The position numbers were made by a program, and so were the translations under genes. Positions 26,626 to 29,804 of a stretch of 64,000 nt of DNA are shown here, one piece after another. The notes beneath the pieces are model-generated. The model ran no database searches and was not told where the DNA came from. It saw nothing but the letters and a program-made list of their open reading frames with translations. The stretch is from Escherichia phage JP4. The DNA lies in sequence record PQ330092. The stretch is one strand, 5' to 3'. Numbering within the stretch: position 1 is the first letter of the stretch; every line of letters starts with the position of its first letter.

Positions 26626-26648
26626 GAAAAATGAATTAAAAATAAATG

Positions 26649-26676
26649 TTGACAAGATAGAATGATGTGATACAAT
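26649..26676 (+). promoter_or_regulatory. Sigma70-like promoter P1 (TTGACA-16 nt-TGaTACAAT)
   Basis: Consensus -35, extended -10, read directly. Confidence 0.65.
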
Positions 26677-26741
26677 AAGCATCAGACATAAAGTTTTCAA
26701 GCGACACAAGATGTGAGTTTGAAAAAAAAGAAAAAAAGTGA

Positions 26742-26769
26742 TTGACAAGTTGAAACGATGTGATATAAT
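26742..26769 (+). promoter_or_regulatory. Sigma70-like promoter P2 (TTGACA-16 nt-TGaTATAAT), tandem duplicate of P1
   Basis: Same architecture ~93 bp downstream of P1; shared TTGACAAG...GATGTGATA.AAT. Confidence 0.65.
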
Positions 26770-26938
26770 GTTCACATCAAGACAGCAAAGAGATTTACCT
26801 TTTAAACACACGGATGATTCATGAAGTAACAAAGGAACTGATAAGTTAAATTATTTTAACACAGTTCCTTTACTTTTGCCCACGGATTGGCTATAATAGA
26901 AACTTAAACGATTTTATCCAACAAAAGGAAATATATAC

Positions 26939-28264
26939 ATGACTACTCAAAACGATATCCTGAACGTTAAACTGACTCCAAAGAAAGCTAAAGAAGCAAT
27001 GGCACTAGCTGACATGATTCAAGATAGCCTGATGATTTGGGGTAGCCCAGGTATCGGTAAGTCTGCAATCGCTCGTCAATACGCTGATGAAAATTACCCA
27101 CTGCGTAAAGATAACGTAGCTAAAATCGAGTTCATGAAACAACAAATCGAAGCTGACCCTGAAAATGCTGATCAGCTACGCCGTGAACTGGCTGCATTTG
27201 AAGCAAAACTAATCGACCAAGATACTAACTTTATCGATTTCCGTTTGTCTCAAATCGAACCAAGTGACCTTCGCGGTATTCCAGTACCAGAGAAGCTTTT
27301 CCGTAAAACTGACGGTTCTCTTCTGAAAGAATCTGAGCTTGCCGAAGCAAAAGATTATGTAGCTGAAACTGCGGTAGTATGGGCTGCACCTAAAGTTCTG
27401 AAATTGTCCGAAGATTGGAAAGGTGTTATTCTGTTTGACGAAATTAACTCTGCAATGCCTATTGTTCAGGCAGCGTCTTATCAGCTAATCCTCGACCGTT
27501 GTGTTGGTGAGATGAAGCTACCTAAGACTGCACTGATTCTTGCAGCAGGTAACCGTGAAACTGATGGCGGTGTAACTTTCTCTCTTGCTACACCACTGCG
27601 TGACCGTATGACTCACATTGAGATGATTCCTTATCATCAAGATTGGATTAACGATTATGCGATTGCAAAACGTTTGAACCCAGCAACTGTTGCGTTCATC
27701 AACAACACTGGTTCTAAGTACTTTAACACACTTAGTCCACAAGATCCTTCTCACAGTGGTGGTACTTCTCCACGTTCATGGGAAGCAGTAGCACGCTACG
27801 AAGATCTCAAGAAAACTAAGACAATTGATAAAGAAGTGTTCCGTGCAATGATTGCTGGTCGTGTTGGTGAAGGTGTTGCAACTGAATACATTGAGTACGT
27901 TGAGAACGTTGCTAAATTACCAGATACTATGTCTATTCTGTCTGGTGAAATCAAAGAAATCGACGCAACGCTGGATATTTCTGCGAACTACTTTATCACT
28001 CTGAACTTGGTTTATAAAATTATCGACCTGTTCAATGAGAAGCAAGAACAACGTCTACCAGTGGAAGAATGGGGTAAACTGTGTAACAACTTCATCACCT
28101 TCCTAGACCATAACTTCTCTGCAACTCAAGCAGAACTGGCAGTACTGGCAATTCGTACCATCACGCTTCATAAGGTTGCGATTTCCATTAAAGATGTACC
28201 AGCGTTTAAAGATTTCATCGCTAAGTACTCTGATCTTGTACGTAAAGCACGCTCTCTTGGCTAA
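26939..28264 (+). CDS. MoxR-type AAA+ ATPase
   Basis: Walker A GSPGIGKS, Walker B ILFDEIN, LILAAGNRE sensor region; ~120-aa insert between Walker A and B; AAAGGAAA SD. Confidence 0.75.
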   Translation: MTTQNDILNVKLTPKKAKEAMALADMIQDSLMIWGSPGIGKSAIARQYADENYPLRKDNVAKIEFMKQQIEADPENADQLRRELAAFEAKLIDQDTNFIDFRLSQIEPSDLRGIPVPEKLFRKTDGSLLKESELAEAKDYVAETAVVWAAPKVLKLSEDWKGVILFDEINSAMPIVQAASYQLILDRCVGEMKLPKTALILAAGNRETDGGVTFSLATPLRDRMTHIEMIPYHQDWINDYAIAKRLNPATVAFINNTGSKYFNTLSPQDPSHSGGTSPRSWEAVARYEDLKKTKTIDKEVFRAMIAGRVGEGVATEYIEYVENVAKLPDTMSILSGEIKEIDATLDISANYFITLNLVYKIIDLFNEKQEQRLPVEEWGKLCNNFITFLDHNFSATQAELAVLAIRTITLHKVAISIKDVPAFKDFIAKYSDLVRKARSLG

Positions 28265-28283
28265 TTAACAAAGAGTTGTTGAC

Positions 28284-28316
28284 AAGAAGGATGCCTAATG
28301 GTATCCTTCTTTTATC
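28284..28316 (+). terminator. Intra-operon hairpin / partial terminator (AAGAAGGAT-loop-ATCCTTCTT + TTTAT)
   Basis: 9-bp perfect stem, 10-nt loop, short T-run between ATPase and VWA genes. Confidence 0.5.
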
Positions 28317-28338
28317 TTAACTAAACGAGGAAATATAC

Positions 28339-29763
28339 ATGTCAGATAACAAATCTACTTCAAGATTCAATGAAGTATCTCCGGCACTCCAGAAAGAATG
28401 TCAAGAACGTCTGGTTCTGGCTCGTACATCTTTGATGTTAACTGCACCATTCTTTGGTGTACTCGCTTCACGTTTACGTCCAGTTCCTAATAATACATGG
28501 TGTCGTACTCTAGCAGTGGATGGTAAACATCTATTCTACAACGTAGAATTTGTAATGGGCATTCAAGACCCATCTAAAAAGAAAGAATATGAAGAAGCTA
28601 TTCGTGAAAAGCACCCTGAAGTTACAGACGAACAATTAAAAGAAATGACTGAAGGTTTGACTGATGAAAACCTTGTTGCTGTAATTTGTCATGAAATTCT
28701 ACACTGTGCTTACGATCACTTCCTTCGTCGTGGTATGCGTGATCCACAACGTTATAACCGTGCAGCGGATTATGCCATTAACCAAATCATCGTTCGTGAG
28801 AAAATTGGGAAAATCCAAAGTTCATGGTTGTATGATAAAAAATATGAAGGCATGACCGCAGAAGAGATTTACATTCTTCTTGAAGAAGAAGAACAAAAAG
28901 AAGATGGTGAAGGTGAAGGTCAACCACAAAGTGGCGGCGGTGAAGGTGAAGGTAAAAATCGCGGTACTTTTGGCGATATTAAAGATGGTAAGGGTAAACC
29001 AAAAGGTACTACCATTGACCAGCATGACGTTCCACAAGAAGGTCAAGAGGGTGGTTCAAGTGAACAGCAAAAACGTGATTACATGGATGATTTCAAAACA
29101 GCAATGATGAATGCTGCTCGTGCAGGTGGTACACCAGCAGAAATCGCTCGTATGATTAACAACTTTAAAGAACCAAAGATTGACTGGCGTTCAAAACTTC
29201 AACGTACACTTCGTAGTTGGTTGAAGTCAGATGCAACATATCAAAATCCGAATCGTCGTTCTTGGGGTGCAGGTTTTGGTTCTAATGGTTCATTCTATGG
29301 TAATCCAATTTACCCAGGGATGAAACCAGATGATGATATTGATATTGCGATTGCACTAGATGCTTCTGGGTCTATTTCTGAAGATATGCTTCGTGATTTC
29401 ATTAGTGAAGTTCTTGGCATCACTAAACAATTCAAACAGTTTAAGATTCGTATCATGACTTTTGATACTGAAGTTTATACTGTAAAGGATTACAAAACTG
29501 GCGAAGAACGTAAGATTCTGGAATATCCAGTAAAAGGTGGTGGTGGTACTGACTTTGAAGCAGTATGGGTTCATATGAAGAACGACAACTACAAGCCTAA
29601 ACAGCTTGTAATGTTTACTGATGGTGAACCGTGGCAGTCATGGGGTGATCCAAACTACTGTAAAACACTGTTCGTGATTCACAGTAACCCAAATAAAGTT
29701 GCACCATTTGGTGAGACTGTACACTACGAATATGAAGCTGATAAAAAGCGTCAACGTAGTTAA
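28339..29763 (+). CDS. VWA-domain protein with N-terminal HExxH putative metallopeptidase module (DUF2201-like architecture)
   Basis: HEILHCAYDH (HExxH), Gly/Glu low-complexity linker, C-terminal MIDAS DASGS (DxSxS) + TDGEP. Confidence 0.75.
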   Translation: MSDNKSTSRFNEVSPALQKECQERLVLARTSLMLTAPFFGVLASRLRPVPNNTWCRTLAVDGKHLFYNVEFVMGIQDPSKKKEYEEAIREKHPEVTDEQLKEMTEGLTDENLVAVICHEILHCAYDHFLRRGMRDPQRYNRAADYAINQIIVREKIGKIQSSWLYDKKYEGMTAEEIYILLEEEEQKEDGEGEGQPQSGGGEGEGKNRGTFGDIKDGKGKPKGTTIDQHDVPQEGQEGGSSEQQKRDYMDDFKTAMMNAARAGGTPAEIARMINNFKEPKIDWRSKLQRTLRSWLKSDATYQNPNRRSWGAGFGSNGSFYGNPIYPGMKPDDDIDIAIALDASGSISEDMLRDFISEVLGITKQFKQFKIRIMTFDTEVYTVKDYKTGEERKILEYPVKGGGGTDFEAVWVHMKNDNYKPKQLVMFTDGEPWQSWGDPNYCKTLFVIHSNPNKVAPFGETVHYEYEADKKRQRS

Positions 29764-29775
29764 GTACTAAATAAT

Positions 29776-29804
29776 GAGAACGGAATTTTCCGTTCTCTTC
29801 TTTT
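29776..29804 (+). terminator. Rho-independent terminator (GAGAACGG-aatttt-CCGTTCTC + TTCTTTTAT)
   Basis: Perfect 8-bp stem + T-run. Confidence 0.8.

Follow-up and report, generated by a model that had tools for sequence, protein, structure and literature searches.

A 64,000-nt stretch of DNA from Escherichia phage JP4 (record PQ330092), a PBECO4/121Q-type jumbo coliphage, was analysed in this study and is hereafter called the window. Within it, two co-directional genes on the plus strand encode a MoxR-class AAA+ ATPase (26939..28264, 441 aa) and a partner protein in which an N-terminal zincin domain is joined by a flexible linker to a C-terminal VWA domain (28339..29763, 474 aa). In jumbo phages they are the orthologues of gp24 and gp25 of phage N4, which count among the 14 genes that make up the core of the N4-like phages (Schitoviridae). 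An earlier prediction, made from the letters of the window without database searches, had placed both open reading frames (ORFs) exactly and had regarded their products as a candidate chaperone/protease remodelling system, which agrees with the evidence presented here and with the in silico inference of Iyer, Anantharaman, Krishnan, Burroughs and Aravind (Iyer et al., 2021; Viruses 13:63). We consider it somewhat probable (about 0.55) that the two proteins form a 6:1 ring-adaptor machine, which would remodel and cleave a phage-encoded client and would serve maturation or assembly rather than immunity. The homology, domain architecture, catalytic-residue conservation, operon structure and synteny of the pair are described below; assembly into a complex, its stoichiometry, the proteolysis and the nature of the client are what we infer by analogy.

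The pair corresponds to N4 gp24 and gp25

Over this region, sequence identity amounts to 99.9% with the Escherichia phages PBECO4 and SHEFM2K and to 99.2% with 121Q, G17 and phAPEC6, all five being Asteriusvirus jumbo myoviruses of ~350 kb. In the PHROG database the ATPase falls into phrog_1297 ('ATPase', E 3e-107) and the partner into phrog_1314 (E 7e-128), the label of which, 'HNH endonuclease', is wrong; the GenBank record of phAPEC6 names the pair 'MoxR ATPase' and 'N4 gp25-like protein'. The homology to N4 gp24/gp25 extends to gene order and orientation (N4-like phage G7C; hmmsearch E 3e-46 and 7.5e-42), to the HExxHxxxxH motif and the metal-ion-dependent adhesion site (MIDAS) of the partner, and to the adjoining nucleotide-metabolism genes. 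However, the N4-type ATPases have only about 350 aa and are devoid of two insertions (~60 aa) found in the jumbo clade, the N-terminal half of the N4-type partner is strongly diverged (tblastn aligns only aa ~255-464), and N4-like loci contain neither p86 nor p218, two genes that follow the pair in the window. Moreover, an HNH gene sometimes stands between the two N4-type genes, as in G7C, where the order is gp24 (ATPase), inserted HNH gene, gp25 (VWA-like) and dCTP deaminase.

A MoxR-vWA-metallopeptidase 'chaperone-cochaperone pair' has been described for the group 2.2 jumbo phages, mostly gammaproteobacterial jumbos plus Atu_ph07, and was proposed to help assemble virions, with peptidolytic processing, by analogy to the MoxR-vWA system of Acidianus two-tailed virus (Iyer et al., 2021). 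That pair belongs to the same family as ours, with an N-terminal metallopeptidase fused to vWA. Given the GenBank annotation, the PHROG families, this description and the homology to N4 core genes, the pair is already known at the sequence level, and the novelty implied by the original prediction does not hold. The same paper does not report the homology to N4 and rV5 proteins, the neighbouring genes p86, p218 and p126, the intercistronic hairpin or the linkage to thymidylate synthase. What the present analysis adds is the location of the two insertions in the ATPase, a terminator-like hairpin conserved between the cistrons, the companion genes p126, p86 and p218, the Gly-Glu tail of p86, the ThyA/ThyX linkage and the correction of the HNH label.

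The ATPase is a MoxR-class protein with two clade-specific insertions

All three motifs first read from the ATPase sequence were recovered: Walker A (P-loop) GSPGIGKS (aa 35-42; 27041..27064), Walker B ILFDEIN (aa 164-170; 27428..27448) and the sensor-1 strand LILAAGN (aa 199-205; 27533..27553); these and all features described below lie on the plus strand. Among 46 aligned homologues, ranging from 94% to about 32% identity, G38, K41 and S42 of Walker A, E168 of Walker B, N205 of sensor 1, R223 and R279 are invariant, and the Walker B D167 is conserved in at least 90%. R223 is part of DRMTH (aa 222-226; 27602..27616) and is a candidate arginine finger, which we assume by analogy to the MoxR 'xxDRF' motif; R279 is part of SPR (aa 277-279; 27767..27775), in which P278 is likewise invariant, and is presumably the sensor-2 arginine, again by analogy. 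The family also shares the specific motif DxRLxxxxPxDLRGxP, with D100, R102, D110, G113 and P115 invariant. The stretch EPSDLRGIP (aa 107-115; 27257..27283), which carries the last three of these residues at the base of the helix-2 insert, is a candidate pore or partner-contact element; in the cryo-electron microscopy (cryo-EM) structure of NorQD, residues of the NorQ helix-2 insert grip the VWA finger.

The original prediction had reported an unusually long insert of ~120 aa between Walker A and Walker B, which proved to be an overestimate. The distance from K41 to D167 is 126 aa, as compared with 62-66 aa in relatives of ~360 aa, and the net insertion is ~60 aa, divided into two pieces. Insertion 1 (aa ~52-94; 27092..27220) separates the Walker A helix from strand beta2 and is missing from the ~360-aa relatives in the ATPase alignment; it is modelled as a helical hairpin (helices 56-72 and 74-90). 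Insertion 2 (aa ~118-145; 27290..27373), delimited by the same alignment, appears in the model as an elongated beta-hairpin of the helix-2 insert (strands 114-123 and 140-149). The two insertions probably break the profile match of the window ATPase to the MoxR families: it reaches 21.3 bits for PF00004 (cut-off 21.2) but only 16.7 for AAA_3 (cut-off 27), and does not match AAA_5 in Pfam. Its homologues, the shorter ones in particular, do reach these families, with matches to AAA_5 in 24/46 (best 3e-11), AAA_3 in 19/46 (best 2e-10), bpMoxR in 9/46 (best 1.7e-5) and Mg_chelatase in 9/46.

The AlphaFold2 model of the ATPase (pLDDT 87, pTM 0.78) predicts a helix-2 insert, formed by the hairpin 114-123/140-149 after helix 108-112, and a pre-sensor-1 element of short strands (188-189/192-193) between helix 174-186 and the sensor-1 strand, followed by a large all-helical C-terminal region (233-440). 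The helix-2 insert and the pre-sensor-1 beta-hairpin are features of AAA+ clade 7, and the model contains both. When the model was compared with the PDB by Foldseek, the top matches were to NorQ (9qh4, 9qhd, 9qh8; E 7e-7 to 1e-6, best 6.6e-7, TMt 0.54-0.62), with CbbQ2 (6l1q) at TMt 0.63, while RFC, NtrC1 and McrB came next, within about one order of magnitude. Sequence and profile searches of the PDB with the ATPase yielded P-loop-level matches only (midasin, E 3.6e-4), and NCBIfam gave no match. Hence, we accept the MoxR-class assignment because of transitive homology and fold, that is through the homologues and the model, and not through a direct profile match of the window protein.

The partner combines a putative metallopeptidase with an intact VWA domain

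The predicted layout of the partner, an HExxH module, a Gly/Glu-rich linker and a C-terminal VWA domain with an intact MIDAS, was confirmed by Pfam families and by invariant residues, and its motifs were found at aa 118 (HEILH), aa 341 (DASGS) and aa 185-245 (Gly/Glu/Gln-rich linker). DUF2201_N ('putative metallopeptidase') matches with E=2e-35 (123.2 bits, cut-off 23.2) and DUF2201 ('VWA-like') with E=6.9e-21 (75.1 bits, cut-off 26.4), in this order from the N-terminus, and both domains were detected in 42/42 aligned homologues. We further compared the partner across lineages, using G7C gp25, PVP-SE1 gp216, PA5oct gp144, a Chromatiaceae chromosome, a Brucella element and two environmental phages. 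The putative zinc-binding and catalytic motif HEILHCAYDH (HExxHxxxxH; aa 118-127; 28690..28719) has H118, E119, H122 and H127 invariant in jumbo, N4-like, rV5-like, PA5oct, environmental and chromosomal homologues, and R130, D144 and N148 are also invariant in both alignments. H127 and D144 are the candidate third zinc ligands. Secondary Pfam matches of the homologues, to Peptidase_M48 (18/42, best 3.8e-5) and PhageMetallopep (11/42), are weak sequence-level links to peptidases, and the partner profile met the minigluzincin MJ1213 in the PDB weakly (E 0.85), along with marginal integrin matches.

The linker (aa 185-245; 28891..29073) is rich in Gly, Glu, Gln and Lys, with 16 Gly, 9 Glu and 8 Gln in 61 residues; it varies in length among homologues and is predicted to be flexible, with pLDDT <50 over 193-239. 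Before the VWA domain there is also a loop predicted to be disordered (pLDDT <50 over 298-329), in which R306 and P326 are invariant. The loop contains the conserved RRSW (aa 306-309; 29254..29265) just before the VWA domain; R306 is invariant across lineages, and R306 and W309 are conserved in at least 90% of the 42 homologues. RRSW may be an ATPase-docking element. The VWA domain itself is minimal (aa 335-462; 29341..29724), and its MIDAS is complete and invariant in the homologues, comprising D341, S343, G344 and S345 (D-x-S-G-S; 29359-29373), T404 (29548-29550) and D428 (29620-29622). Fold searches assigned the VWA fold to the C-terminal half of the protein and returned VWA matches only.

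In many records (PBECO4, 121Q RefSeq, SHEFM2K, GAP32 and others) as well as in phrog_1314, the partner is labelled 'HNH endonuclease', a reading that has annotation alone on its side. It is refuted by the Pfam scan, since 0/42 homologues match HNH at E<=1 while 42/42 match DUF2201_N and DUF2201, and by the VWA fold of the C-terminal half; the chance that the partner is an HNH or homing endonuclease is therefore negligible. The label has probably spread from true HNH genes that lie beside gp25 homologues (G7C gp24.1, PA5oct gp145). 'Homing endonuclease' and 'anti-sigma factor' occur as further erroneous names of the partner in many GenBank records.

Distribution and gene order

Among 50,697 phage records, tblastn detected the partner in 684 and the ATPase in 815 (roughly 1.3-1.6%), and these positive records include RaK2-like jumbos, PA5oct-like phages, Vequintavirinae, N4-like Schitoviridae and a cyanophage. 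Gene order was followed in 81 viral loci (the best 80 of 584 IMG/VR matches, plus G17): the ATPase gene is situated upstream of the partner gene on the same strand in 77/81, usually <130 bp away, and 3/4 exceptions are cut by a contig end. The same arrangement was seen in 26/29 cellular or metagenome-assembled loci, obtained by scanning prokaryotic genomes with subfamily-specific patterns, and these 29 are thus no census of cellular DUF2201 pairs. Only in rV5-like phages was the pair seen uncoupled. The partner architecture is uniform in 120/120 among the matches listed.

Some of the copies are chromosomal. In Chromatiaceae the neighbours are RibBA, an M48-TPR protease and SoxA, a non-phage context, whereas the Brucella copy adjoins DnaN-like and DUF4942 genes, consistent with a mobile element. 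Because chromosomal copies exist in non-phage contexts, the module is a general MoxR-VWA/zincin pair that is carried by several phage lineages. In the Chromatiaceae record CP037918.1 (6932-10823 of the locus), the gene immediately 3' of the zincin-VWA gene encodes an M48-family peptidase with TPR repeats, and a second VWA protein is encoded 5 kb from the pair. Several of the matches came from sulfur-oxidising gammaproteobacteria (SUP05, Thioglobus, Thiobius).

Relation to other MoxR-VWA systems

The NorQ-NorD and CbbQ-CbbO systems resemble the window pair most closely in structure, as they supplied the best matches of the ATPase model and have a partner with an N-domain-linker-VWA layout. Nevertheless, NorQ and CbbQ are only 11-15% identical to the window ATPase, NorQ (~255 aa) is without the C-terminal helical extension and the two insertions, NorD and CbbO have no zincin domain, and the targets of both systems are metalloenzymes (cNOR, Rubisco), for which no cleavage is known. 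Acidianus two-tailed virus, the precedent cited by Iyer et al. (2021), encodes a MoxR protein (p618) and a VWA protein (p892) that, by their description, resemble our pair in being viral and tied to virion (tail) development; it is an archaeal virus, however, and its pair has no peptidase domain.

The ternary systems of Kaur et al. (2020; eLife) consist of a VMAP, iSTAND, FtsH or beta-propeller third component together with MoxR and a vWA protein bearing a C-terminal effector. They share with the window pair the MoxR and vWA core and a proposed vWA capture followed by ATP-driven release, but differ in having the effector after vWA, an accessory distribution and diversified effectors. The original prediction had linked the pair to such bacterial conflict systems; this link is loose, as no third component was found, the domain order is reversed and PADLOC was negative. 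The CobS/CobT-type cobaltochelatase module, named there as the opposing explanation, found no support: the window ATPase, its 46 homologues and the 42 partner homologues do not match these families at E<=0.01. CobS, CobT and CobT_C alike are absent from the results for the ATPase set at this cut-off, and from those for the partner set even at E<=1. In contrast to CobS/CobT and BchI/BchD, the window pair includes a zincin, and no CobN/BchH-like large subunit was detected by Pfam among the neighbours scanned (23324-32303).

Transcription signals of the pair

The original prediction had viewed the pair as an insulated unit with its own promoters and terminators. Promoter-like sites are enriched in 25800-30200 (23 versus 12.7 +/- 3.4 in shuffled sequence), as are terminator-like sites (6 versus 2.2 +/- 1.7), and the predicted flanking signals were identified. 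The gap of 313 bp before the ATPase gene contains, from 5' to 3', two tandem sigma70-type promoter-like sites close to the consensus, P1 (TTGACA-16-TACAAT; 26649..26676) and P2 (TTGACA-16-TATAAT, 12/12; 26742..26769), both with a TG extended -10 and both carrying the extended motif TTGACAAG...GATGTGATAyAAT; a leader hairpin followed by a T-rich run (26831..26871; minimum free energy (MFE) -15.2 kcal/mol, z -3.6), annotated as an ARNOLD terminator in G17; and a weaker promoter-like site, P3 (TTTACT-17-TATAAT; 26869..26897), near the ATPase start. Throughout the 64-kb window, 13 sites match at least 11/12 consensus positions, of which only 3 are intergenic, and 2 of these are P1 and P2. An extended -10 promoter occurs at the matching position 5' of the ATPase gene in six jumbo relatives. 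Downstream of the VWA gene, an intrinsic terminator-like hairpin (29776-29797) with its T-run (29776..29806; z -3.9) is again an ARNOLD terminator in G17, and equivalent hairpins are present in all jumbo relatives compared. RaK2, GAP32 and three more diverged jumbo relatives maintain the same promoter/terminator layout with different sequences.

The second part of the earlier claim, that the unit is self-contained, is only partly apt because a terminator-like hairpin separates the two genes and because conserved synteny extends past the pair. This intercistronic element (28284..28320) is GC-rich, with a 12-bp stem (28284-28311; MFE -21.8 kcal/mol, z -5.2) and a T-run. A hairpin of different sequence occupies this position in 5/5 other jumbo relatives, as well as in 29/38 unique environmental ATPase-VWA intergenic regions, compared with 2/114 coding controls. 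Owing to the hairpin, the partner is probably made in smaller amounts than the ATPase (about 6:1); reduced expression of the partner would fit the 6:1 ring:partner complexes of NorQD.

The type of promoter does not fix the timing of expression. The equation of a sigma70 promoter with an early gene was considered and rejected, since PA5oct-type phages use host RNA polymerase (RNAP) with sigma70-like promoters all through infection. Nor can the genes be timed by the T4-type late-promoter motif TATAAATA, which is absent from both strands of the 64-kb window. As a side observation, 7/12 plus-strand sites matching at least 11/12 positions in the whole window are clustered in 1.3 kb (25606-26897), and 4/7 of these lie inside the coding sequences of three upstream genes.

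Genes conserved around the pair

Three uncharacterised genes accompany the pair in the window. The p126 gene (26245..26625; phrog_15638, PHROG E=5e-74) is often directly 5' of the ATPase gene: its homologues are found there in 28/80 viral loci by blastp, a positional ORF cluster in 57/69 environmental loci, and the counterpart in an environmental locus (L016) matches the same phrog_15638. On the other side, p86 (29858..30118; phrog_13789) encodes a small, acidic, helical protein (pI 4.24) whose tail ends in ...KGE, and p86 homologues lie between the VWA gene and p218 in 72/80 viral loci. The acidic tail varies among these homologues, but 37/74 unique sequences carry G[E/D] within the last 8 residues (shuffles 4.4 +/- 2.0, maximum 13); 20/74 tails end exactly in 'GE' as against 0.46 expected, a statistic inflated by kinship among the sequences. 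The C-terminal Gly-Glu of p86 could be a ligand for the MIDAS of the VWA domain. The p218 gene (30121..30777; phrog_15894) is conserved 3' of the pair, on the same strand in 74-75/80 viral loci; it was found in 85 phage records, all from jumbo or large phages, and in about 735 representative clusters, all standalone proteins of 180-310 aa; the PA5oct counterpart is gp140. Neither Pfam nor the PDB contained a relative of p218, no fused relatives were seen, and its homologues match nothing. An apparent relationship of p218 to the anti-CRISPR 9xxw (E 0.013) was discarded, as the match covers a coiled-coil-like region and is compositional. N4-like, rV5-like and chromosomal loci are without p218, and likewise without p86 and p126.

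Synteny within a lineage was not accepted as proving a module, because other neighbouring genes of the environmental lineage are also 80-93% conserved; conservation there is weak evidence alone, and only retention across lineages counts. Across the split between environmental and RaK2-like jumbo phages (partner identity 37-40%), only p126, p86, p218 and thymidylate synthase remain linked to the pair. Of the 61 loci with enough sequence, 26 have ThyA or ThyX downstream, two non-orthologous enzymes that replace each other in the same position. The nucleotide-metabolism gene that had been predicted downstream is indeed a thymidylate synthase, ThyA (E 2.9e-101; 31374-32303); in another locus (L085) thymidylate synthase follows the block at 10615-11304. 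In the environmental lineage the block is also flanked by genes for Fe-dependent enzymes, namely two 2-oxoglutarate (2OG)-Fe(II) oxygenases and a radical-SAM protein.

One may speculate that p126, the MoxR ATPase, the zincin-VWA protein, p86 and p218 form a five-gene module, in which the Gly-Glu tail of p86 would bind the MIDAS and p218 would be an adaptor or substrate, though we judge this combination unlikely as a whole. If true, phages would possess a 'ternary' MoxR-VWA protease system of their own that is not related to the VMAP/iSTAND types. The conserved intercistronic attenuator would set its expression, its output would be coupled to the neighbouring thymidylate-synthesis genes or to virion maturation, and the N4 core genes gp24/gp25 would receive a first clue to what they do.

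Possible function and alternative explanations

The mechanism that we propose is modelled on NorQ-NorD, CbbQ-CbbO and midasin and is inferred by analogy. According to cryo-EM, NorQD is a 6:1 finger-in-pore complex, whose N-domain-linker-VWA partner is twisted by ATP hydrolysis. Following these templates, the phage ATPase would assemble as a hexameric MoxR-class ring, and one partner molecule would dock by its VWA side on the helix-2-insert/pore face of the ring. The MIDAS metal would then capture an acidic residue of the client protein, and ATP hydrolysis would twist or stretch the linker between the VWA and N-terminal domains, whereby the client would be remodelled; finally, the zincin domain would either cleave the client or be gated by the movement of the linker. 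We favour a phage-encoded client because of the co-conserved companions, the matches in virion proteomes, the virion-protein genes directly upstream of the pair in the window and the core-gene behaviour of the pair; candidate clients are p86, with its Gly-Glu C-terminus, p218 and virion proteins. The proteomic data make an association of the ATPase with the virion suggestive: in mass spectrometry of phAPEC6 virions the ATPase (gp265c) was represented by 6 peptides (19% coverage), p218 (gp262c) by 1 peptide and ThyA (gp259c) by 3 peptides, together with a single-stranded DNA-binding protein (SSB), and in the PA5oct RefSeq record, the gene numbers of which differ from those of the paper, the ATPase homologue (PQE65_gp149) is flagged 'ESI-MS/MS'. 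The presence of the ATPase in virion preparations may reflect either carry-over of abundant proteins or real packaging.

Several observations weigh against a maturation or assembly machine of this kind. The VWA partner (gp264c) was not among the phAPEC6 virion proteins, whereas ThyA and the SSB were, and the PA5oct study counts '7 virion-unrelated enzymes' among its detections; for these reasons the virion detection is weak evidence. N4 gp24/gp25 are middle transcripts among replication and nucleotide-metabolism genes, the block of the environmental lineage sits among DNA-metabolism and auxiliary genes, and in the rV5-like phage PVP-SE1 the two genes are uncoupled, 4.3 kb apart in divergent early-type units full of small ORFs. 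Chromosomal homologues outside any phage context imply that a virion-specific role cannot be general. As for the protein assignments, the window ATPase itself remains under the Pfam thresholds for AAA_3 and AAA_5, the Foldseek margin over other AAA+ proteins of the helix-2-insert clade (RFC, sigma54 activators, McrB) is small, and the zincin fold found no match to a solved peptidase, both fold searches being dominated by the VWA domain. Moreover, no biochemical or genetic study of the family in any phage was found in the literature; the CRISPRi-ART data include neither N4 gp24/gp25 nor the EdH4 homologues, and the RaK2 paper does not mention the pair.

Alternatively, the pair might be a host-takeover or anti-defence protease that is made before the late genes and whose MIDAS/zincin partner cleaves host defence, stress or proteostasis factors. 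The strong sigma70-type promoters directly 5' of the pair, the middle transcription of N4 gp24/gp25, the location of the rV5-like copies in early-type regions, the retention of the pair in strictly lytic large-genome phages of unrelated morphology and the strong selection on the catalytic motif would all suit such a role. However, the PA5oct case deprives the promoter type of its value as proof of early timing, and the strict conservation of the core pair, along with its slowly evolving specificity elements, is unlike the fast-evolving and patchy anti-defence genes. Furthermore, any host target would have to be universal, as the hosts include E. coli, roseobacters, Pseudomonas and uncultured bacteria of marine or freshwater origin, and the chromosomal homologues occupy housekeeping contexts. 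Hence, we regard a takeover protease as rather doubtful. A role as an activase or cofactor-insertion chaperone for a phage nucleotide-synthesis enzyme, with HExxH handling metal and no protease activity, seems less probable still. It could explain the repeated linkage to dTMP synthesis across lineages (ThyA here, ThyA/ThyX in 26/61 loci, dCTP deaminase and ThyX after gp25 in N4-like G7C), the two 2OG-Fe(II) oxygenases and the radical-SAM protein around the environmental block, and the ThyA peptides that co-purify with the ATPase in phAPEC6 virion preparations, and the best-characterised structural relatives (NorQD, CbbQO, CoxDE, chelatases) do serve metal insertion or enzyme reactivation. Yet ThyA has no need of a metal cofactor, the linkage to Thy genes may only mirror shared middle-gene synteny, the invariant E119 is the zincin catalytic base and would be dispensable for mere metal binding, and the secondary Pfam matches are to peptidases (M48, PhageMetallopep).

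A phage-borne conflict or defence module, acting for example in superinfection exclusion, with p86 and p218 as third components and the zincin as effector, would share its MoxR-vWA core with the systems of Kaur et al. (2020), and the bpMoxR matches of 9/46 ATPase homologues (best 1.7e-5) and the presence of conserved extra components are in line with it. We nonetheless consider it very improbable: no VMAP, iSTAND, FtsH or beta-propeller component was detected by Pfam on the neighbours or among p218 homologues, the order of domains is reversed (zincin N-terminal, VWA C-terminal), neither protein matches PADLOC at E<=0.01, the genes are a core pair of N4-like phages and no variable accessory island, and the effector has not diversified, as the uniform architecture among the listed matches indicates. 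The remodelling and cleavage of a phage-encoded client thus remains our preferred explanation.

The incremental observations made here (the intercistronic terminator, p86/p218, the Gly-Glu tail of p86 and the ThyA/ThyX linkage) make the function of the pair more testable, as they lead to cheap and concrete tests. N4-like phages have few core features, of which this pair is one, and rV5-like and RaK2/PA5oct-type jumbo phages share it; identification of the client would fill an old gap in the biology of N4 and would reveal how viruses employ a MoxR-VWA machine that brings its own protease. The practical value of the present work is mostly corrective: the pair is real, yet it is nothing unusual in phages of this group, and the 'HNH endonuclease' label is wrong.

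Other features of the locus

The upstream neighbours of the pair include very acidic proteins, as predicted, namely p326 (pI 4.05, 29% Asp+Glu) and p131 (pI 4.10). The stretch 24864-26241 codes for acidic virion proteins. Scans of the 64-kb window for Rfam families and tRNA genes gave no match. Downstream of the post-VWA terminator, a promoter-like site (GGGACA-16-TATAAT with TG; 29811..29838) may serve the p86-p218 unit, and the relatives have a conserved promoter motif after this terminator. Between p218 and ThyA, the window encodes a 197-aa protein (30781-31374), which gave a SLOG-type YAcAr match below threshold (E 5e-4) and a match to phrog_768, 'DprA-like' (E 1.3e-26). This gene is kept only in the RaK2-like jumbo clade, and the phAPEC6 annotation shows just two short ORFs in its place.

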